A stretch of 63,989 nt of DNA, counting the filler, from Dimargaris cristalligena (Eukaryota), in NCBI GenBank assembly GCA_003614675.1. It is 3 parts of 3 records of this genome, joined end to end, with 100 filler letters (N's around TTAATTAATTAA, not from the genome) between each part and the next. Parts side by side here need not be neighbours in the genome. Positions count along the whole stretch, not along the records: positions 21,478 to 42,846 come from ML002665.1; 2 more parts are not named here. The stretch is one strand, 5' to 3'. Each line of letters starts with the position of its first letter. Position 1 is the first letter of the stretch. Below the pieces are notes generated by a model, which did no database searches, was not told the DNA's origin, and saw only the letters and a program-made list of their open reading frames with translations. The translations under genes and the position numbers were made by a program. Of the stretch, positions 1,925 to 44,012 are shown piece after piece.

Positions 1925-2170
1925 TGTTGGTTATAGGAAATAGGCTATTGGTACCGGGAAGTAAACTGTTGACCCTGGCGATTGACCCATTGGTTCTGCT
2001 GATAATTCTGTTGGTTATAGGAAATAGGTTGTTGGTTATAGGAAATAGGCTGTTGGTTATAGGAAATAGGTTGTTGGTTATAGGAAATAGGCTGTTGATT
2101 ATAGGAAATAGGCTGTTGGTTCTGGTAAGTAGACTGTTGGTTTTGGTTAGTAAACTGTTGGTTCTGGTAA
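1925..2170 (-). repeat. Coding 21-bp minisatellite (GTTGGTTATAGGAAATAGGCT)n
   Basis: About 5 near-perfect units at ~2010-2120, degenerate units on both sides, and one unit beyond the present stop codon. Confidence 0.9.
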
Positions 2171-2943
2171 GTGGGGAGTTGTTCCCGGGGAGGCAGGGGC
2201 GGGGGATTGGAGATATTGTTACTATTGTTAGATCCGCCAACGGATGAGTTATTCTGGTCGGTTGAGGCATAGGTTTTGGGTAAATTAGCGCTGGAGACTG
2301 CTGCTTGGCTGTTGGGGGTGATGGGCAATCCAAGGTGGGGGCCAAAGCAACGAACCATCCACTTTTTGGCTTCACTCTGTTTCGGAATTCCGGTATCCAC
2401 GTTTAGATAGCCAATAAGGTACGCGGTGGCCAGGTCCGAATCAGACGGCTTCTCGGAAGAATTTTGGGAAGGCTTATATTTGGACGCGGTATCAATCAAA
2501 GCGTTTTCGTTACTCACGAATACCGGAAAAATGCGATTGGCCCATTTTATCATTGCGTAATTCTCTAGATTGGGACCAAATCTCGGTGGTTTCGACATAT
2601 ATTTACTACCTAAGAAAGCAAACTCGAACTCATCGAAGAGCCAGTAATATCCGTCTAACTGATCCTGGCTTTCGATGAATTGATTCGTAGTACCGGTACC
2701 AAGAGTCTCCTTGATATCCCGTAACTGTTGCACATAATTACGGTGTTGGTCTTTTCCAGCCTCATCACTCGGTTTGATATCATAGAAGGTCGCGCAGAAG
2801 GGATGGATATTTGGGCCAGTAGGTTGATTCCCAGGGTTATTGGTCCTGGTGCTATCCAGTTGTGTTCCTCGGATGGGCGTAGCGGAGGACAAGCATACAC
2901 TGGCAGCTGCGAGGACGATAATAGCGGAGACGTTGACTTTCAT
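1945..2943 (-). CDS. Secreted protein with C-terminal Q/N-rich (ISYNQQP)n repeats; lineage-specific, effector-like
   Basis: 332-aa ORF with signal peptide MKVNVSAIIVLAAASVCLSSA, CCACC-ATG context and a 21-bp tandem repeat encoding SYNQQPI. No family recognised. Confidence 0.8.
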   Translation of the reverse strand: MKVNVSAIIVLAAASVCLSSATPIRGTQLDSTRTNNPGNQPTGPNIHPFCATFYDIKPSDEAGKDQHRNYVQQLRDIKETLGTGTTNQFIESQDQLDGYYWLFDEFEFAFLGSKYMSKPPRFGPNLENYAMIKWANRIFPVFVSNENALIDTASKYKPSQNSSEKPSDSDLATAYLIGYLNVDTGIPKQSEAKKWMVRCFGPHLGLPITPNSQAAVSSANLPKTYASTDQNNSSVGGSNNSNNISNPPPLPPREQLPTYQNQQFTNQNQQSTYQNQQPISYNQQPISYNQQPISYNQQPISYNQQPISYNQQNYQQNQWVNRQGQQFTSRYQ

Positions 2944-5900
2944 GGTGGAGACGAGTGTAAAGGCTCAATTAGCTGGATGGCTAACCAGAGAGGATGGCTT
3001 CGGGCGAGGAAAGGTTTTCACGTACTAATGGACTGGAGACAGTGCAACTGGTAAGCGCATACACAAAAAATTGTTGATAATTGAAAATGTCGAAGGTGGG
3101 GGAAGAGAACTCGGGGGGAAGGCAATATAAAACTACTTTGTCAGAGGGAGATGTTGATAAGCGTCTTAGGGGTACTTGGGTCACGTATTTATATTCGAAT
3201 GACCCAAAGCGGTTCTACGGTTATACATCCCCCCTCTCCCATTTGGATTCAGCGGAATGGCCCCATTTCGCCAGCCCCAATTATGCAATTGGTACCACCA
3301 TCAATGGTTATTCATTGCATTCCAAAGACTGCTCGGCTTTATGTTTCTTTCTCGACCCAACCGCCGGCTACTTTAATCCACCGGGTAAAGGGTAGTTGGT
3401 CAAAGTCACCCGAGTTGGTTGGGATTGAGCCCGAAATTTGAGTAAAGAGTTCATTGGCCTTTAACACATTAAGCTATAGTTCTCGATTGAACCAGTCTCC
3501 CTGCAGAAAAAGCTATTGCCCTCGTATCCCCTTTTGAGCTCCCCTTCTTTCTATCCCTTACGACCTTTTTGCGGATGCGAAACTATTCTACAGGTGAACT
3601 CCAATCCAACCGTATAAGGTGTTAGATGAGACTGCCTCAAAATAGATTTGCCTCTTTTTTTACTGTGCCCATCTCAACCATCGCACCAAACGGGAGCTGT
3701 GTAGTAGAGCGGGGCCAAGCCCCACCCATATACAGTGCGCTTTAGCGGATAGTCCTATTATACGACTCAGCTACGCGCCGACCCAGGACCACTGGCTTTA
3801 CTACCCAAGGCGAACGGTCTAATGGTACTGTATGAGATAAAACCTGCGTCCGGCTTTTCGACCCTACAAAGCCGTTCGCATCCTATATTACGCACCCCAA
3901 GCAGTTGTATTGCCCCATTTTGGGACCGAGTTGAATATTAGGCGGAAGTATTCGGCTGGCTACTGCCGTCACCCCTTCCCATACCAGTTCCCCGTCGAAT
4001 ATATCCCTATTGGCGTAAATAATGGGGTCATTGAAAGGAAAATGGTCATTGTACAGAGTATTCATGGATAGTAGGATTGGTAGGCTAGTAGAAGCCGAAT
4101 CCTCACCAGTCACACTGTACACCGGCGTCGGTACATCGCAAAAGCAAAGGAAAGCCAGTTAAATGTCGCGGAGGGACACCCTTTGTCTACTAGCCCCTCT
4201 TTATCTCTTTTAGCCCTCCAACAGATCCCCTGCTCCAGGCTTGTATTTTCTCTTGTCGAAAAAATGACGCTGTTTTTAGGAAATCTCGCCTAAAAGAAAT
4301 CCCGCTGGTCCATTCAATTTACTCTGTACTCAGCTACTATTTTGCACAGAAGGCACTGCCTATTTATTGCCCACTTCCCTGTTCATTGATACTCTGCACC
4401 AAGTGCAGAGTGTACAGGTCCTACCTAGTCTCCGTCGGAGTAATGCCTAGTATCCTCAATATGTGCTTTGTTTTTTTATACCTGTTGTAATAGTAATAGG
4501 ATAGTATTTGAGATGGAGGTCATTAATCGGAAAGAGGGCGGATGTAGTTGGTGTTATTCCTGGCTGCTAGTAATTGAAGTCAGTGGTACTTGTAGTGGGA
4601 CAAAATGTTATTTAAAAGGCTGCCACCAAAGAAACTAATAACACTATTTATACCCTTTCATTGGTAGTATAATATAGTAAGGGTTGAGAGATCTAGTCCT
4701 TTCGACAAGCTGCTCTTCACTCCGGCTAACCCAAGTGCTTCTTGTTGGTAAAGAGTGAGCTTTTGTAAAGCCCATACGGCCCGTCCTTCTTTAGTGCATA
4801 AATATTCCCCATTTTCTCGGCTACTGTTATTTTTAACCCTGGCAATAGCGACATGGTAGTACCCTTGCCAGAGGGCGGTGTGGGCGGAGACCTGGTTTCA
4901 CTAATAGCCTGGGCATCCCTTAATGACGAACTTATCCACGAGTAGCACTGGGCCCGGCTTCCGATGCCTCACCACCTTACAAGGTTACCTCAAGGCTATA
5001 CAGCTCAACAGGGATGGACCTTATGCATGTTAAGCATTATCAGCACACGCACGATATAATATAGCCCGACTATATAATGAGTGGTCGGTTAATATGCTCG
5101 AATATAAATTCGATACGATAAAACTGGAAGTAAAGGAAGAAAGCAGCTTGAGGCCGGTAGGTGCCTCAAGGTGGTTAGTTTTGCTGAATAATGTAGTCGG
5201 TAGGGGGCATTTTTAGTGGTTGAAATGAGCAGACAAAGAATAACTAGCTAAGCTAGTGTAGTTGGTCCGAAACAAGGGGGAATGGAAGACCCGTCGGGGT
5301 ATATTTTTCAATACAATTGAGCACCAGCTACGCTCCTCTACCCCATGTGAGCTCCCTGCCACTGTAAAAATCAGTCTGACATGGTTCATGTGGCAAATAG
5401 TAGATATTTAATGCTGAGACGGGGGCGAAGGTTGTATTAGTCTCGCCGGGACACTGTGTCCCGAATATCTCCATTTACCTATTTAGCTTATGCCCTACTT
5501 AATCGGTTCGCACTTATCTTAGGTAGGACTATGATTGTAATATCCGATTTTGGGCTACATGTCGGACGCCGGACTTTGCCCAATGCCTTAAGGCCTGTCA
5601 CATTAAACCAGTTTCATTATGTTTTATATAGGTATATCCCAATGGCTATGCAGGGTTTTAAACAAAATGTACACGGCAAAATAGGCGATACATTTATTTT
5701 TACATTGACATATTAGCGGTATCGAATCTATGTTTAGTTATACAGCTGAGCTGAATGTCTCCCATATGGATTTCCCCAACGGGGACTTCGTTTTTTTAAA
5801 AAAAACAGATAACAGATGATGCTCGGAGAGATGGGTATATAGACTACCTGCAACGGAAACAATCGAAAGGGGGTTGAAATGACCAGTTTAGTCTTCATTA

Positions 5901-10621: not shown

Positions 10622-11552
10622 TTAAACCGGGATACCAAATGCGTCATTGGGATAGCCGTTTACCAGTTCATCATTACGGGACGGGCTAATTACAACGTGG
10701 AGATAGGGTAGCGTATACTGACTTCCAATACCGCCGAATGTAGCATTCACCAATTCATCGGGCCGCTGGTTCCAAAAGGAAAATAGATTGATCGAGGTCA
10801 TCCGAAGCGGGCGTGTATGCAAATAGTCATAGCGTTAGATAAAAGTTAGTCGAGATGAGGACATCCTTTGTATCACACCCCGTAGTCAGCTCAGTGTAAC
10901 TATCACGCAAATTAGTACCCATCCTCGACATGGCTAAATGACTTACCCCGCTTAGCGATAAGTGCACTACATTACTTGTATCCAGGGCCGCTCGCCGACA
11001 AGCCGACAATACCGGTACTGCGGTGATATGATTAGGGTCAAAAAAGCCGTATGTCCCACCCTCCGAAGGGGCGTTGTCGTAAGTTGTTTTGTACTGGTCA
11101 AAACTGGACCGGAGTTCCCGTGTATAAATCCGGCCCAAATTTTTCGAAGTGATGGGGTTCGCCATCACCAGCGAGCAAATCGAAAACGTTTCGTTCCATT
11201 TCAGGGTGGGAATGGGGAAACTCATAAACGTCTTCATGCTCACTCGGTTAAAACTGGGCTCCGCCCGGTCCTGTTTGAGGGGCGCGGAGGCGGATATCGT
11301 AACCGTGGGGTGGCTGGGATCTTCCGCTATGTTTTCGCGGACGAGAAGATACGGAAGGCGGCCAAAGTTGCGCTTGGCACAGTCATTTTGGGGGCATAGT
11401 AGGGGGATAGGCTGCGTCGACTTGGCTACGAAAATGGCCTCATTTGCCGAAGTCTGGTGGAGCACATGGTCGGTGATAACCGGTCGAGTCGTGAGTAGCA
11501 GGGTTAGGAGGAGTCCCCAGGAAACGGCATAATATGATACTACTCGCATCAT
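10622..11552 (-). CDS. Secreted Cys-containing protein, CBM96/DNRLRE-like family (paralog 1), 2 exons
   Basis: Signal peptide; CPxxDC, SFPIP, CxL, NAP, YGFF and VPVLSACR motifs shared with the neighbour. Donor GTAAGT at 10946, acceptor before 10765, giving the C-terminus RPDELVN...PYLHVVIS...GIPV*. Confidence 0.75.
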
Positions 11553-12082
11553 AGAGACAGGGGCCCGGAATACTAATGTGGTCTACAGAATAATTTAACA
11601 ATGCCGTACCACTATAATCAAATAAGAAACCACGATGGGAGCGTCGTCCCCGTAAGTAATTCGAGTATAACTGACTAGGCTACACTATCGGGAAGGAGGA
11701 TATTTATCAATCGACTATAGAAGGCGAAGCGGGTCCCGTCGTCATTGGACAATCAGTATGAAAAGTCCAAAACAAGCCCAAGGTTTTAACTGACCCAAGT
11801 GTACGTGCCCCTTGTGGAGAACTAAGCTGACTCAGCGACAGTCTGGATCCAGCTGGGTGAATGGGGCAATAAAGTGATTAAGTTAGCAGGAGTAAGTGAA
11901 ACCTACACTCGGGATTTATTGGTTGCTAATTTACGTCAATAAGCCCAATGTATTCAAGATGGGGAAGTAGGGAGACGGTGTTTCTCCCCCCAAAAAACAT
12001 ATAATCTACGAACATTATCAGACCGAGAAGAGCTTCGGGGATATCGGCTATTTTATAAGCCAAGGTAGTGGGGTTTAACCGA

Positions 12083-12986
12083 CTAGAATACGACCTTGTT
12101 CATATCCTTATCGTCGTCGATTTTGAATCGAAGGGCGGCCGATTGACCTGAATTTTTGCCAGGGAACACTACGACGTCATCGGTTAGCTAGAAACCCCGC
12201 CCCGCCATCCAGTAGTCGGTGGTCAGCGGCCAAATAATACAACCCAGTAAGTAAATAAAGGACGTTAGGGTTAAACATGGTTTCTCGGCCCATCATTCAT
12301 ACATAGATACCTTGGCTTGGGTATGCGTTCCGGTCAGGTAGTCAATCCATGACCCCCGCTGCAATGCCCCCGCCCTACGCTTTGGTCCTCTTACTCAACA
12401 TTGGACAACTTACCACCGTGACATAAAAATCCGCCGTTGAGACAGCATTGTATTTGACCGCCGTGCGGCACCCTGATAGCACCGGTACCTCAATGGGATC
12501 GCCGGCCTTAAAATAGCCGTAGATGTCGCCCAATTGCGGGGCATTCAACCCATTCATGGGCTTGTTGTTCCGAATAGGTGGTTCGCCGCGGGCTTCGGCG
12601 ATATACACGGTGACGTTCCCCCCCAGCGTCGCAGGTGGCAGTTTTAAATAACAGCTCTGGACTATGGGAGTATCGAAAATGGGAGGCACGGGAAACGACA
12701 AGAGGGTCACCACGTTACTCTTCTGCTCCTTGGCCACATAGAATGATTCGCTCGTGTCGAAAACACACCGCCGACAGTCCGGGGCTTTGGAACAGTCGAG
12801 AGGGCACTGGCCTTGGTCGTTGGTGGCAGCACTAAGGCCAAAGCTGACTTCGTGGATGGGTTTGATTTGACTGAGACTATTGTCGTTAATGATCAGTTGG
12901 CTTCGGCAACACGGCAGAAACGAGCTCCACACCAGTGTGCCTATAATGAGGCACGCATAGAGTCGGTTGGTAGTAGATTGGACCAT
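12083..12986 (-). CDS. Secreted Cys-containing protein, CBM96/DNRLRE-like family (paralog 2), 2 exons
   Basis: Signal peptide; CPLDC..DCRRC, LLSFPVP, SCYLKLP, NGLNAP, YGYF, VPVLSGCR. Donor GTAAGT at 12413; exon 2 (12187-12083) reads LTDDVVVFPGKNSGQSAALRFKI...VVF*. Confidence 0.78.
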
Positions 12987-13661
12987 GGCCAAGGTAGAGG
13001 AGGCTGCAGGGCCTTTTTGCGGGAAAGGGCGTGTCCTGAAAATTGGATAAGGACGTTTTGGAAAAGGCTTAATCGGGGTATTTAACGCCGGGGAAATTGA
13101 ATTAGGAAATAGTGACCGTGAGCCAGCCTATAATTGTCAATAAATGACGCTGGTCATGAAATATAACAGGTTTAAATGTGGAATTACAAGTAACGGAAAG
13201 TTCATTGAGCCGTACCATCGAATATAGTCGTAATTAGTGAATTAATGAACTGGAGTGTAGCACAAAACGGTATGCAGTCCTGGTGTATACTGCTCCCGAC
13301 CATGCCTTCCCCCCTCGGCCTAATTCGTCTGAAACCTAATCCATTTTTGTAGTTGAACCATAGCATCCCAATCCCAAGTCTGACTTTAATTTGAGAGTTG
13401 CTTTGATTGGGACGATATGAAACATACGAATAGAGAGGGGTCAAACACGAACTAGGCCTGCCACTATACAAGGGAGCATGTCTGTCCCATTCGGCCAGTG
13501 GATACTGGTCCAGTGTGGCAGGTTAGTATGTCATTGTTAATTAAGGACCCTCCTGCGTTTCTCCGACTCCAAGTGGAATAGGTGACCAGCTAAACCAGCC
13601 TGTCATCTCCGAATGGTGGTTTTTATTATCGGGGTCCAGCCCATTAATCCATGCGAGAACC

Positions 13662-21377: not shown

Positions 21378-21477
21378 NNNNNNNNNNNNNNNNNNNNNNN
21401 NNNNNNNNNNNNNNNNNNNNNTTAATTAATTAANNNNNNNNNNNNNNNNNNNNNNNNNNNNNNNNNNNNNNNNNNNN
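21378..21477. other. Artificial contig linker (N44-TTAATTAATTAA-N44)
   Basis: Palindromic six-frame-stop 12-mer centred in exactly 100 positions; identical structure at 42847-42946. Confidence 0.97.
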
Positions 21478-29719: not shown

Positions 29720-30351
29720 GGTTGCCAATGGTTATAAAGTCGTTAGCGGAAGTAAAGGTGTTGGAAATGTGGTTATATGTATTGAAAGATGAAGTCAAGC
29801 GTTTGGCCACTAACGCGACATGGGCAGGCCAGCGATTCCAAACTGTCACGAAGCAATCCGGATTAAACTTAATGTCAAAAACGGAGTGCAAAGTATAATA
29901 AGAGGGAAAAGAAAAGCCATACACGAGGTTCAGAAATGTTGACATTGCCTTTGTTTACATGTGGTTCGCCTCAAGCAAGAACAGGGACAGGTTGTGCACA
30001 ACGCAGCCAAATCCAACTCCGCCCAAACGCCACTGGTACTCCTCTCAAAATAAACACTCTGGTGTTGGCCCTGAGCCGCATTCCCCTGGCCTTGGTCACC
30101 TCTATGTTGGCTGCCAGGTGTATTGGAAGATTACTGCATATTTCTAAATGTCTTTTTCTGCTCTGTTTACCTGGTTTCGAGTTGTCGGGTCGTGGCCCGT
30201 GTCACAGTCAAGCTAATCGCTCAGCTTCTTTTCGCAACCGCAGTTTATTCGGCTCCTGAATTGCCCGAACCCATTGTCTTTCCCATTTTGAGTCTTTCGC
30301 CGCTTGACACCGACCGTCCTGTATTCTGTTCACCAGCTCTCATATCACCAC

Positions 30352-32605
30352 ATGGCGACACTCATAGCTCCGTTTCCGTTGTCCACCGACTCGGACGACA
30401 TGCAACTCCTACTGACCAATTTGAACCTTCTCGGCTGGCAGCCCTCCCAAGTCTGCGTCGGTCCTTATGGCGGAATAGTGGTCGACACCCAAGTTTTCCG
30501 CCAGGGCCACCAGCACCACAAAGCGGCCGAAGTCATCCTCAAGTTTCTCTTCGACCGACTCCATGCCAATCTCAGTCGAGACACCTTCGCCAGCTGCTAT
30601 CCGGCCGGCGATCCCCGCCAGGCCCGGGAGTTCCGCAACCACGCATTCAAACTTTTGGAGCAGATTCGGAAGGAATCCAATGTCGGCAGTAGTACTGGTA
30701 GTGTTGACCACGCCCTGCCCCTCGTATCGCCTGCTCCTACACTATTGAATCCCCACCTCCATCCGGCCTTGGCCTTTCCCGCCCAATTTCCGCTTCGGCG
30801 TTCCTATTTCGACGACTGCCGGGGTCTCCGCTTTGAAGCCCTTTTATGCCATCTGTCACGACACGTGTTGGCAGCCACATTGGTGAAAGAGTTCCATTGG
30901 CGGCAAGGCGTCCGTCCCCAACCCGCCAATTCGGTGGAGGGTCTTGCGATTCGGAGCCGAAAGACGCTCGGGGCCGGTATAGTCGATAAAGACCTACCAC
31001 CACCCACCGACCGCACTTCATCGTTTCTCGACCAACTCTATGCTCAGGCGCACAGTAAGCCAACCCCGGCCACCACAGGCAGTTCCAATTCATCCAATGA
31101 TACCCTCAAACGGACTCTTTCCTTACATATTAACCGGGAGGCCCGGGTGTTTCTTAATACCATGTCGGTCCAGTCTTACATTCAAACGCGATGGCAAACC
31201 CTGGCTTCCGAATTGACCCACCTTTACGGTGACCGTTCGGCGTATTTGGCCACTATACAAAAGCAATTGCGGGACCTTCCTGATATACCCCCGCCATCCC
31301 CCGCTGGCCTAGACAGTCGGCTAAAAGTGGACCCTAGCGAGTCCTCTCGATGGGCCTCTCGTTCATCCCTGTTGGAAATGTTGACTCAGTCCGATTTGCT
31401 GCCCCAATCGGCTAAGGTTACAGCTCGACAGCAATTGCTCCATACTCACGTTCACCGAGCGATGGGACGATGGCTACAATTGGATACGTATTTAGATACC
31501 GCTAGTCGTCAACAAGTCATTATTGATGCGGCCGCACATGTGAACCAACGCCCGTGGCAACTTCGTGCAGTCGACCATCCTCTTGTAATATCCGAGGATA
31601 TGGCAAGTCGGTGGAAAGAATGGCTCCAAAAGGTAGGCAGGGCCGAGTGAACACCATTACTTTTGCAGAACTGGCATGCTGCAGCCAAGTTAAATTATGT
31701 TTCTGATTAATGTACTAATCTCCACTCGAGGGCACGGCCATAGCCATCGGCGTTGCTAACTTCCTTTGCTGGCCACTATTAATCCCACCTATCCTCACCC
31801 ATCCCATTTGCCATATCAGGCTGAATTAACTCCGTACGAGGGTTCCAAGCTTCAACTAGTGGATATACTGCAGATGTGGCAGTTGACTACACGAGGCCTA
31901 TTTTATGCCGCCGGACTCGAAACCAATCCTGCTAGCCCATCTCCCCTAACTTCGCAAACCAACCAAATTCGCAGCTCGGCTCATGAGCCAACAGCATTAT
32001 TGCCGCGCTCCACCGACCCGACACCCCTCGACCAGCTTCTCCCCCATATCGAAATACTACCCCACCTTTCACGGCCACCTCACCAGGCCGCCCCCACTGT
32101 ACTTACCACCGATTTGTTCACCGTTGGCCCAACTCACTGGAGCACCTCCTCCTCCTCCTCTGAATCCTCCCGGCCTGGTCATGCCACATGGGATAATCTG
32201 CACAAAGCAGAACAGACCCGGTTGGAGCAAATTCGGGCCCTGAAGGCCAAGCTACAGTACCGCCACGATCAATTGACAACCCAGTTGGAAGCTCGACAAA
32301 CTCGGCCCAATGCATCATCTCTATTACAACCCACCTCTAGTGACCAAGTAATGTCGCCCCCTGCCCTTCCAGAGGGCCTGCGTAGAGTGACTATCGCCAG
32401 CCCCCCTATCGGAACCAATTCGGGATTGGATGACCGTCTCAACCAAATCCGGGAGCAGTTGGGCTCCATTTTCGACCTCACAGTCTTCCGGTCTGAACTC
32501 GAAGAACCCTGTCATGGCCAAGATACTCCAATAACCAATTCGCCGTTAGTGCCCTCTCATACCACTGGTTCATTTAAACCATGCTCCGCTATGGACACGG
32601 AATGA
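30352..32605 (+). CDS. HAUS6: HAUS augmin-like complex subunit 6 (Dgt6/HAUS6 N-terminal domain), 2 exons
   Basis: LLLTNLNLLG, KAAEVILKFLFDRL, F..CYP.GD.RQAREFRN.AFKLLEQIRKE, LRRSYFDDCRGLRFEALLCHLSRHVL. Intron 31633-31819; exon 2 begins AELTPYEGSKLQLVDIL. Confidence 0.85.
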
Positions 32606-40771: not shown

Positions 40772-42846
40772 TCAGTCGTGATAGCACATGCCGAGTATCG
40801 GCCGGGGTAGTATGACATTGGGGTGAAGATGAAGTAAGGCGACGTTTCCGCTAGGTTGATCGGGCAGGGTGAATACAGTACTGATCGATTGGTTATTGAC
40901 AATATCGGGTATATCCATTTGGGCCGAATAGGGTGAGCGAAGAGTTGCACCAGGAAGTAATACCGGGCGATTTTTGACAAAACCCACCAGGAAATGTTCA
41001 TTAAGGAACTTCATTGCCACCCGAGACTGTCCCTTGTACTGGGGCGAATTGTGGAGACCGGAAATGGCCCCATGAAGTCGATTGCGGGGCCCTACCATCA
41101 GGTACACCTCTCCCAGAGTATTTCGCCATTTCTCTTCATTCGTCAAGGATAATTGCGACGGTGCCATAGCCTTGAGCAGCCGTTTTTCATCAAAAATGGG
41201 CGGTAGCCCCACGGTCTTCTGGCGAAGTTCGTTATTTGATAATACCAGTCTCGCGTTCGTGGGGTAATACTCGAGGATGGGAGACCGGCTGTCAACCATC
41301 AGGTTCGCAAATGCCTCAGGCAGGCACGACAAACAACCGGTGGGAAAGACAACCATTAACTGCTCAAAGGGCTTGCGTGGCTGTCCGTTCGGAAATTTAA
41401 TTTTCATAGTAGCGACCTTGATATCGGCAGCCAGCGGTGGCTGATCGTAGGGGAAGAACCAGGACCACGAGGGACAACCCTTGTAATAATAATTGAGAAG
41501 CCAGAGCATTCCCTCGATATAGGCTTTTGTCAGACGGCCCCGTAATCCAGACCGACCATGCAGCTTGATACCGAATACTTTCGAGTAGTATGCTTGGCGA
41601 AAGGTAGTCCATCGATGCTGCATGACAAATTGTTGATCCAAATCATTTTGGCTACCACCGGGGTGGGGAGGGGTCGATGATGGCATACCTGTGTTAGAAG
41701 AAATAACGCTTGTATAGAGATGTTTCGGCCATTTTGAGTGCTGACCTAGGTACATCCCGGTCTCTTTCTGTCCCGATATCTTCGTCAAGTTCTTTTTGCT
41801 GGCGGCGGTTTTCAAACACTTATTTTCCTTACGAAGTCTCTTCGCCTGTTTCTTGGCCTGGCACTTTATCGGGGGGGCTACAAACGCACTGCCCCAAATT
41901 TTGTCGATATTCTTCTGCTCACTGTCGGCCAGGCGGCACATAATCATTTGAACGAACTCTAGATCAATATCGCAACCATATGTTAGATAAGTGCCCCGTT
42001 GGGCAAAAATTTCTTGCCAAACTTCGAATAAGACTCGGAGCTTGTCCGCCTCTAGATTAAGTTGGGGAAGGACTGGTAGAAACGCGCAGTTAACCATGAA
42101 ATAGAGAAAAACCCAGTCGTCTATAGTCGCCTCCAAGTCATCCCCGTCCAAAGGCTGTTCGCTGCCACTGAGCTCGACCTGAAGGTATTCCCGTAGAATA
42201 TCGATTTGCACCAAACAGAATCCACTGTCCACTGACTTCATCCGGCCGCCAATGAGACCGTCCGACATATTGGGTTGAGTTTCTGTGCCCCGGGAGCCAT
42301 CAAAATGTTCCCGCAAAATGGCGAAGTGCGGTTCGTGGGTGATAAGAGCCAACGTAATCAAATCGGCGTCGGGGCTATAGAGAACATGGCGGGTGTTGGC
42401 CTTGTAACTGTGTGATGCTCGCTGGACCCGAATAAAGTCCATGATTTTGTGCCTGGCTTCTCCCGGAACGGCGGAGTCGGAAATAATTACCTGGATGGCC
42501 TGCCAGGCCGGCTCACTGCTAATACATTTGGCCGCGTGGTAATGGAGGCAGTTGGTCAGGCGGGCCATGAACGGAGTCCCCGGTGCTATAAGAATCGGCT
42601 CCGTTTGAGTTGTAGAATTATGGTCTACCATACCAGACTTTTGGTCCACTTCCGAAAAGATCCACTCCATCGGCCTGGCTGGGGGACCTAGCTGGAAATG
42701 TTGAAACTGTCGGTGGCGCATTACAGCCCGGGGCACCACACCATCCACCGCAATGTAGAGCAAATTTCGCGGTCGAATAAGCGCGAACAGGTGGTCGATG
42801 TACTCGCAAATGGCGACCATTACGTGCTCCTCAGTCGGTGGGGCAG
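40772..42846 (-). CDS. XRN2/Rat1-like 5'-3' exoribonuclease homolog with degenerate active site; 5' end cut by contig end
   Basis: PTEEHVMVAICEYIDHLF..IRPRNLLYIAVDGV.PRA, PGTPFM, SD..VPGE..HKIMDFIR.QR, NTRHVLY..DADLI.LAL.THEPHFAILRE, AYIEGMLWLLNYYYKGCPSWSW, KPFEQLMVVFP, SPILEYYP. Intronless ORF of more than 680 codons. Confidence 0.9.
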
Positions 42847-42946
42847 NNNNNNNNNNNNNNNNNNNNNNNNNNNNNNNNNNNNNNNNNNNNTTAATTAATT
42901 AANNNNNNNNNNNNNNNNNNNNNNNNNNNNNNNNNNNNNNNNNNNN
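42847..42946. other. Artificial contig linker (N44-TTAATTAATTAA-N44)
   Basis: Same structure as 21378-21477; the genes on both sides are truncated at it. Confidence 0.97.
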
Positions 42947-44012
42947 TGCTTATCTCGGTTACCTGCTCTACTTGGCCATCTCCGGCACCAATGATGTGGG
43001 TTACGTGTCGCTGATTCTGTTGGCCGCCGTCTACGGTCTCCAGGCCCTCATTTTCCTGATCAAACGGCAGTGGCAGCACATTGGCTGGATGATCATTTAC
43101 ATCCTAGCCATTCCCCTTTTCTCGTTTTTCCTGCCCGTCTACTCCTTCTGGCACTTTGACGATTTCTCGTGGGGTAATACCCGCGTGGTCGTTGGTGACA
43201 ACAAGAAGGCCATTGTCATTACTGACGAGGGTAAGTTCGACCCCAAGGATATTCCGCTGAAGAAGTGGGCCCAGTTTGAACAGGAAATGTGGGAAGTCCA
43301 GTCCAATGGATCGCAAGACTCGCGCCCCGCTAGCCGTGCCCATACCCACCAGTCTAACCGCCCCATGTCAACCATGAGCCACGCCCTGCCCCAGATGCCC
43401 ATGCCCGGTCCGTTCAATACCGGCGGTCGCCCCGGGTCCCGCGCCGGCGACATGATGTCTCAGTACGGTGGTGCCACGAGCGGTAGCACCAACGCCCCCA
43501 TGCTCCCGCCCACGGCCATTGGTGGCCCCTTGGATATGGGAATGAATAACCGGCCCATGTCTTCCATGAGCTCCCAATACCACCCAGGACCCGGTGCTGG
43601 TAATATGATGCCCCCGCGTAGCTCCCACTATGTCAGTATGGTTGGCCCCCCCGACTACCGTAATTCCCGGGGCGTCTCCCAGATGATGCCCCACGAGATG
43701 GGTGGAGGGCCCCTCGGTATGGACTACCCCGCTCGTCCCGGTAGTGCCGCCTCCCACTATTCCCAGCAGAATGCCCCCCACCATCCCCAGAGCTTCTACA
43801 TGGGTACCGGTGCCCCCGGTAGTTTCGAACATCTCCCCTCGGACGATGAGGTTCTTCAGGAGATTCGCAATATTTTGGCCACCGCTAACCTGATGACCAT
43901 TACGAAGAAGCAGGTCCGGGAGCGTTTGAACGACTACTTCCGCTGCGACTTGACACCCAAGAAGGATTTTATCAACTCGAGCATTGAATTGATCCTGCAG
44001 GGCAAGCTCTAA
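42947..44012 (+). CDS. 3' part of a class V/VII (myosin-motor type) chitin synthase with DEK_C domain
   Basis: LLAAVYGLQALIFLIKRQWQHIGWMIIYILAIP...YSFWHFDDFSWGNTR and the terminal PSDDEVLQEIRNILATANLMTITKKQVRERL...FINSSIELILQGKL. 5' part missing at the contig start. Confidence 0.95.

Follow-up and report, generated by a model that had tools for sequence, protein, structure and literature searches.

The window analysed here, a stretch of 63,989 nucleotides from the Dimargaris cristalligena genome (assembly GCA_003614675.1), carries at the right-hand end of its middle contig (ML002665.1, positions 21478-42846) a gene related to those for the 5'-3' exoribonuclease Xrn2/Rat1, in which the reading frame is open and many of the active site residues have been replaced. 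We think it likely that this gene is an inactive but selectively maintained XRN2 paralogue. With a second copy in the same species (below), it appears to be a pseudoenzyme branch of the XRN family that is lineage-specific and so far belongs to one fungus. D. cristalligena belongs to the Zoopagomycota and lives as a haustorial mycoparasite.

The gene lies on the minus strand, where one frame runs open from position 42846, the contig edge, to a TGA codon, with no stops in 690 codons; the remaining five frames of the same stretch have 22-37 stops each. This agrees with the preliminary description of this DNA, which had noted an uninterrupted open reading frame (ORF) of more than 680 codons.

40775-42844, minus strand: coding part of the candidate XRN2/Rat1-like pseudo-exoribonuclease (P0001, the "window protein"), 690 sense codons, equivalent to residues 70-740 of KAJ1981405.1 (P0002).
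40772-40774, minus strand: TGA stop codon, directly after the Xrn2 core (…LGMCYHD).
41689-41745, minus strand: 57-nucleotide in-frame GT…AG segment, a candidate intron, removed in the GenBank model of the P0002 gene.

The closest database protein to the window protein is P0002, a D. cristalligena protein of 740 amino acids that is identical to it at 668/671 aligned residues (99.6%) and adds 69 N-terminal residues. Those 69 codons are missing from the window because the contig edge cuts the 5' end of the gene; the missing 5' part is thus real as a truncation of the window, but it is a contig break and not gene damage. Searches of the window with tblastn (queries P0002, P0003, P0126 and P0004) did not detect the missing N-terminal exon, and they matched this locus only, with no second XRN locus in the window. 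The gene had also been called intronless; the frame is indeed open throughout, but the 57-nucleotide segment is annotated as an intron in the P0002 model, and the homologous stretch is kept as coding in the model of the second copy. The protein has no C-terminal tail past the core (P0002 has 740 amino acids, and the intact paralogue P0332, described below, has 992).

By its domains and predicted fold, the gene belongs by descent to the Xrn2/Rat1 branch of the XRN family. In Pfam, the window protein is matched to XRN_N over positions 62-240 of the 241 in the profile (E 3.5e-53) and to XRN_M over 3-438 of 443 (E 1.6e-71); the E values for full-length P0002 are 1.1e-63 and 3.1e-70, respectively. 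The best solved relative of the window protein is Schizosaccharomyces pombe Rat1 (3fqd, E 7.5e-108), with a colinear alignment covering chain residues 74-847. The likeness to Rat1/Xrn2 (3fqd and C. thermophilum Xrn2, 7opk) takes in both Pfam domains and colinear conserved regions 1 and 2 (CR1, CR2), as well as the Xrn2-specific C-terminal segment, although canonical XRN2 proteins have higher Pfam bit scores (328-340 vs 215-225 here for XRN_N, and 393-478 vs 238 here for XRN_M). An AlphaFold2 model of P0002, built from a 75-sequence alignment consisting mostly of canonical XRN2 proteins, has a predicted local distance difference test score (pLDDT) of 80.8 and a predicted template modelling score of 0.83, with low confidence at the top of the tower (residues 123-147), at residues 258-274, in the linker (423-448) and in the former Trp loop (589-592) (pLDDT <50). 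In a Foldseek search with this model Xrn2/Rat1 structures came first (template modelling (TM) scores 0.72-0.88), followed by Xrn1, with FEN1/Exo1 far behind; 7opk was matched with E 8.3e-51 and TM 0.76/0.86. The comparison of a model with Rat1 that had been suggested in the preliminary description gave TM 0.78/0.84 for 3fqd, and the TM scores for 7opk and 3fqd together span 0.76-0.88; the model confirms compatibility with the Xrn2 core fold more than it proves that fold. The XRN_N plus XRN_M architecture, placement in the Rat1/Xrn2 clade and a predicted Xrn2 core with its C-terminal segment were all found, and the original assignment to the XRN2/Rat1-like family stands.

In Xrn2, seven acidic residues hold two Mg ions and a basic pocket receives the 5'-phosphate (PMC9512700); in S. 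pombe Rat1 the acidic residues are D55, D104, E205, E207, D235, D237 and D336 (PMC5499597), and in the C. thermophilum enzyme (CtXrn2) His61 and Trp706 stack on the first three bases (PMC9512700). Five of the seven acidic residues (D55, D104, E205, D235 and D237) are kept here and two are lost, E207 being Arg and D336 being Ala in the window copy and Pro in the second copy. None of the four 5'-phosphate pocket residues is kept in an ungapped alignment (Lys to Val, Gln to Arg, Arg to Gln and Arg to His), so that the canonical PRAKMNQQRSRRF reads PRAVMRHRQFQHF in the window protein. Neither base-stacking residue remains (His to Ser and Trp to Gln). The stacking His and the N-terminal helix lie outside the window and were read from P0002 and P0003, where MGVPALFRWL of the helix reads MSNSAFSKCI; the two copies are identical at 4/11 positions of this alpha-1 helix. 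The active site features are as follows:

42734-42754, minus strand: IAVDGVV, acidic residue 2 (S. pombe Rat1 D104) kept.
42695-42733, minus strand: remodelled 5'-phosphate pocket PRAVMRHRQFQHF, identical in the second copy.
42575-42601, minus strand: EPILIAPGT, replacing canonical DSNxITPGT.
42446-42466, minus strand: PGEARHK, acidic residue 3 (E205) kept and residue 4 (E207, equivalent to Xrn1 E178) replaced by Arg.
42356-42376, minus strand: SPDADLI, acidic residues 5 and 6 (D235 and D237) kept.
42074-42091, minus strand: NCAFLP, acidic residue 7 (D336) replaced by Ala (Pro in the second copy).
41780-41866, minus strand: basic stretch KCQAKKQAKRLRKENKCLKTAASKKNLTK in the CR1-CR2 linker, of low model confidence.
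41435-41455, minus strand: FPYDQPP, replacing YPYHYAP.
41207-41248, minus strand: LVLSNNELRQKTVG, replacing LDLNGKKxxWQGV, with CtXrn2 Trp706 replaced by Gln (pLDDT <50 at P0002 residues 589-592).

The stretch with the Trp to Gln replacement reads LVLSNNELRQK in the window protein, and the basic linker stretch KCQAKKQAKRLRKENKCLKTAASKKNLTK looks like a nuclear localisation signal. The motif replacements listed in the preliminary description (the pocket PRAVMRHRQFQHF, EPILIAPGT, PGEARHK, NCAFLP and FPYDQPP) are thus all present, and the losses of the stacking Trp and His are additional to them. The active site, which had been called dismantled, has indeed lost E207 and D336, but with five of seven acids kept the loss of its acidic cluster is less complete than described. 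Sequencing error is not the explanation, since the lesions recur in a second assembly of this gene (P0002) beside the window, and the paralogue has them in both of its records, P0003 and P0331.

The E178Q substitution abolishes Xrn1 activity. E178 is the Xrn1 equivalent of E207, and the solved Xrn1 structure 3pie is, by its title, that of the E178Q mutant. None of the three defining features of an active XRN (the seven-acid Mg site, the basic 5'-phosphate pocket and the His/Trp stacking pair) is complete in these proteins, and we infer that this XRN lineage would be unable to hydrolyse RNA. An alternative is that they are still enzymes, in which the Arg at E207 and the Arg/His-rich pocket (VMRHRQFQH) serve a metal-sparing hydrolysis or act on another 5' end (5'-OH, capped or modified). 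The five remaining acids are in keeping with this, as are a predicted core fold that is retained and a pocket that contains two Arg and two His and is the same at 22/22 residues in both copies. Nevertheless, E207 and D336 are among the seven Mg-holding acids (PMC9512700, PMC5499597), the equivalent of Xrn1 Lys93, which is essential for processivity (PMC5499597), is Val, both stacking residues are gone, and the copies are moving apart in the alpha-1 helix. The identity of the pocket in the two copies was considered as a sign of special conservation and dropped, since CR1 as a whole is 83% identical and 22 identical residues are only marginally unexpected against that background (0.83^22 ~0.02). 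We consider continued catalysis of this kind improbable.

Such a combination of replacements is confined to D. cristalligena among the XRN proteins compared. GNDF[LIVM]P is kept in 207/207 other XRN2 homologues, which form our canonical comparison set, as is the pocket motif if Met/Leu is allowed at one position, and PGEGEHK is kept in 205/207, the exceptions being P0122 (VAGEGEHK, with both Glu residues kept) and P0054 (in which the pattern was not matched). In a wider census of 472 XRN proteins, 468 of them outside the D. cristalligena dead-site lineage (P0001, P0002, P0003 and P0331), at least two substitutions in the acidic site were found in those four proteins and in 0/468 others; five of the 468 (P0125, P0367, P0376, P0377 and P0403) have a single apparent acidic substitution. 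E207 and D336 are otherwise invariant among the 468 save for two D336 changes, one to Asn and the other to Glu, and none of the 468 combines such losses. In the census alignment a protein of 1047 amino acids, P0465, has three pocket positions and the stacking Trp changed and all seven acids kept; this may reflect a separate, partial remodelling, or else an artefact of the alignment.

A survey of the PIN-like superfamily lists XRN_N only as "7 (+)", without predicted inactive members (PMC5499597). Full-text literature searches gave no report of an inactive XRN, although papers or supplements outside those searches could hold one; a search that combined pseudonuclease with exoribonuclease gave nuclease-family papers on Dis3, Dis3L2 and Ssd1, with no XRN title among the matches listed, and a full-text search gave no paper linking Dimargaris cristalligena to an exoribonuclease. 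In GenBank the proteins of the dead-site lineage are labelled "5'-3' exoribonuclease 2", an annotation that, to judge by the residues above, should not be applied to them.

An intact XRN2 is present in the same species, as was found by an exhaustive phmmer search and a cluster look-up after the preliminary description had proposed looking for one. This protein, P0332 (KAJ1987342.1, 992 amino acids), has canonical residues at all catalytic, pocket and stacking positions and is the nearest relative outside the dead-site lineage (45% identity, 631 bits). No D. cristalligena entry was among the word-index matches to P0004 (lengths 464-1479, best 120 of 7990) or to P0126 (lengths 30-619, best 120 of 7355); a loss of active Rat1 from D. 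cristalligena is rejected, as phmmer found P0332. The second dead-site copy, P0003 (KAJ1975300.1, 1113 amino acids), matches P0002 at 514/722 positions (71% identity) and has the same set of lesions; P0331, an older partial record of that copy, shows them too across its 361 residues. Since the lesions in P0003/P0331 are those of the window copy, they predate the second duplication. Residues 1-360 of P0003 are an N-terminal extension with no Pfam domain, and P0331 starts exactly at the XRN part; the extension is probably a fused gene model.

A careful IQ-TREE phylogeny (32 rows by 932 columns, with two animal sequences as the root) was built from rows hand-picked from matches across the fungal phyla, with all Dimargaritales matches included. 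It has the topology (Tieghemiomyces x2, (intact P0332, (P0003, window/P0002))), in which the Tieghemiomyces plus D. cristalligena clade has support of 100/100 (ultrafast bootstrap/Shimodaira-Hasegawa-like approximate likelihood ratio test, SH-aLRT), the grouping of the intact with the dead-site proteins 100/96, and the dead-site pair 100/100. The stem of the dead-site pair is 2.8 substitutions per site long and its tips 0.33 and 0.32, and the branch of the intact sister is 0.43, so that the path to a dead-site copy (2.8 + 0.32) is about seven times longer than that to the intact protein. A relative-rate test with Tieghemiomyces as outgroup gave 116 unique changes in the dead-site copy and 40 in the intact one (597 columns, p ~1e-9). 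The motifs LLHLHP, PPxTGR and IFA[QR]RGT[YF] are confined, among the 472 proteins, to the intact and dead-site XRN2 proteins of D. cristalligena; as the long stem joins a short branch and these three motifs are exclusive to the group, we do not think that the grouping is a long-branch artefact. An earlier tree without P0332 placed the dead-site pair beside Dispira (branch length 4.65, SH-aLRT 86) and is superseded by this one. The tree that had been proposed thus places the pair as sister to the species' own XRN2. It shows that a duplication of the XRN2 of D. cristalligena, which is itself still intact, gave rise to the gene, and that after this duplication the dead-site lineage evolved very fast and then duplicated again.

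XRN2 is duplicated in three of the five Dimargaritales sampled: Dispira simplex (P0004/P0122, 57% identical), Tieghemiomyces parasiticus (P0333/P0472, which fall in one 90%-identity cluster) and D. cristalligena (P0332/P0002/P0003). Among these, extra copies with a lost active site are found in D. cristalligena only. Dimargaris verticillata and D. xerosporica group with Dispira, not with D. cristalligena, in the XRN2 tree.

The two copies might instead be decaying duplicates, functionless leftovers of recent duplications with no stop or frameshift yet. Maintenance was judged here from protein-level proxies, and most of these speak against decay. When the window ORF was subjected to random point substitution until a pair of copies had drifted to 66% identity, a mean of 13.5 stops was obtained in the pair and 0/300 runs were stop-free; the real ORF has none in its 690 codons. 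The divergence between the copies is uneven: CR1 is identical at 300/363 positions, CR2 together with the C-terminal segment at 192/290, and the linker at only 22/69. At the 158 columns whose conservation across the 207 canonical proteins reaches 98% or more the copies are 92% identical, and at columns that are less than 50% conserved they are 60-69% identical (Spearman p 1.5e-9 across conservation classes; Fisher odds ratio 3.5, p ~1e-7). The family residue is retained at 116/158 invariant columns in P0002 and at 118/158 in P0003, and of the 45 invariant columns that are changed, 32 have the same replacement in both copies, five are changed differently in both and eight are changed in one copy; with 32/45 replacements identical, most of the damage predates the second duplication. 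Finally, when divergence at the most conserved columns is divided by divergence at the least conserved ones, the dead-site pair gives 0.20, the same as the intact protein against its Tieghemiomyces orthologue (0.20), and a proxy of the stem gives 0.44. Taken together, these results are in keeping with a phase of rapid change after which the fold came under constraint again. Because the divergence between the copies is non-uniform and the window copy is stop-free, the pattern points to selection rather than decay; by these proxies, the XRN2 core has been conserved in both copies in the way usual for a protein that folds and is in use. With an intact XRN2 as sister, lesions in common and non-neutral divergence, the original claim of a second, catalytically dead XRN2 paralogue that is still kept open is supported.

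A number of observations weigh against this interpretation of the gene as inactive and maintained, and some of them would favour decay. The dead-site lineage evolved about seven times faster than its intact sister, and a single species is all it is known from: the best 150 phmmer matches in 1.84 billion representatives included no relative of between 45% and 73% identity. Had the fast rate been constant, the second duplication would have to be recent, and the tips would be less informative. The conservation gradient is weaker than that of ordinary XRN2 pairs, which have 94-100% identity at the most and 12-62% at the least conserved columns (Dispira P0004 vs P0122, 94% and 39-52%; Coemansia vs Kickxella, 100% and 50-52%), compared with 92% and 60-69% for the dead-site pair. 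That the second copy is intact is judged from a gene model, which has a gap of about 20 residues relative to the window protein. The G+C content at third codon positions (GC3) of the XRN ORF and its codon bias are below those of four other window ORFs: GC3 is 0.57, as opposed to 0.64-0.79 in the coatomer, aldehyde dehydrogenase, SAPS and chitin synthase ORFs (a HAUS6-like ORF at 30292-31647 has a similar 0.58), and its relative synonymous codon usage has a correlation of 0.60 with that of three long window ORFs, vs 0.82-0.96. Such a weak codon bias fits low expression or relaxed selection. As the alignment behind the structure model is dominated by canonical XRN2, the likeness of the model to Rat1 is partly built in. 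Lastly, the residues mutated to make an exo-minus Saccharomyces cerevisiae Rat1 (E203, D233 and D235; PMC4357727) are all kept here, and these proteins may have a residual or altered chemistry. Weighing both sides, we regard decay as an unlikely explanation and an inactive, maintained XRN2 paralogue as the better one.

Judged from the window sequence and the GenBank gene models, it is very improbable that the gene is a processed retrocopy of XRN2 (intronless, mRNA-derived and recently relaxed), an alternative raised earlier: its ORF is uninterrupted for 2.07 kb, but long uninterrupted ORFs are normal in the window (coatomer gamma, 1001 codons; SAPS, 795; aldehyde dehydrogenase, 574), so an unbroken frame is a poor guide to retroposition; its stop is not followed by a poly(A) tract in the window sequence; the GenBank model has a possible 57-nucleotide intron; it lies among ordinary housekeeping genes, with a protein kinase, HAUS6, ATP adenylyltransferase and Sec3 on the same contig; and two diverged copies have lesions in common.

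An inactive XRN2 paralogue of this kind would act without catalysis, through the remaining core, the CR2 region and the C-terminal segment, the canonical threading of a 5'-monophosphate end probably being lost. Rat1 carries its Rai1 site in the segment that follows CR2, on the face opposite to that of the active site, and this Rai1-binding segment is poorly conserved in general (PMC11972402); the post-CR2 segment is present in the window protein, whose alignment with 3fqd extends to chain residue 847. We tentatively favour a role as a nuclear scaffold or as a competitor for Rat1 partners (Rai1, Rtt103 or Pol II), or for a new partner; such partner binding is possible, with the odds somewhat against it. 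Second in rank, the protein would be a re-tuned binder of RNA ends that does not cleave. More speculatively, and in our opinion doubtfully, the torpedo nuclease may have been turned into its own antagonist or into a reader. As an antagonist, the dead-site copies would be dominant-negative occupants of the Rai1, Rtt103 or Pol II docking site that degrade no RNA, and hence a natural brake on torpedo termination and on nuclear 5'-3' surveillance. As a reader, the protein would use its rebuilt Arg/His pocket, which is the same in both copies, to grip a different RNA 5' end and leave it uncut. In either role it would be the first natural non-catalytic XRN, and a tool to part the binding from the hydrolytic roles of Rat1.

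Among known proteins the closest is the intact P0332, which is the sister of the dead-site copies in the tree and has the rare motifs in common with them, but which has kept its catalytic, pocket and stacking residues, has a C-terminal extension of about 250 residues and is on a branch about sevenfold shorter. Relative to canonical Rat1/Xrn2, the dead-site lineage has 2/7 metal ligands, 4/4 pocket residues, 2/2 stacking residues and the alpha-1 sequence replaced. Ssd1, a fungal pseudonuclease of the Dis3L2/RNase II family, is likewise an exoribonuclease homologue of fungal origin that persists without catalysis (PMC8097288, PMC8934651). It differs in having the RNase II fold and 3'-5' polarity, as against the XRN/PIN-like fold and 5'-3' polarity of the XRN proteins, and in being old, widespread and a demonstrated RNA binder, as against a lineage from one species; we intend the parallel as an analogy, not as family membership. 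Utp23 beside Utp24 is a similar pairing of inactive and active paralogues within the PIN-like superfamily, in which Utp23 has a general RNA-binding function (PMC5499597); these belong to the Fcf1/VapC group, unlike the FEN-like XRN_N, and Utp23 is universal in eukaryotes.

The window consists of three unrelated contigs joined artificially, so nothing to the left of 21378 or to the right of 42946 is a true neighbour of the XRN gene; this applies to the chitin synthase fragment that lies just beyond the second joint. The joints and the remaining ORFs of note are as follows:

21378-21477 and 42847-42946, no strand: artificial contig joints (N44-TTAATTAATTAA-N44), with a stop in all six frames.
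42948-44009, plus strand: chitin synthase C-terminal fragment, Chitin_synth_2 profile positions 416-527 of 527, with a DEK_C domain at its end; its 5' part is cut by the joint.
1948-2964, minus strand: ORF of 339 codons with a hydrophobic N-terminal stretch and a Gln/Asn-rich C-terminus, without a Pfam match.
10830-11582 and 12378-13127, minus strand: two adjacent ORFs of about 250 codons with hydrophobic N-terminal stretches, without a Pfam match.

The C-terminus of the 339-codon ORF is made up of some 6-8 tandem copies of a 21-nucleotide unit (QQPISYN), at 1990-2172. The two adjacent ORFs are distant paralogues (31% identity over 84 residues, E 1e-07 in a single comparison) and may form a small tandem family whose products are secreted.

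XRN enzymes have been treated as uniformly active, and a dead branch would be an exception. If our interpretation is correct, this is a further example of nucleases that turn into binding proteins, a theme that recurs. Its reach is limited for now to one poorly studied fungus and to a function read from sequence. The shares of hydrolysis and binding in the action of Rat1 in Pol II termination are debated (PMC4357727). Two dead Rat1 copies beside an intact one would be a natural separation-of-function allele, and such a paralogue could help to settle that debate.

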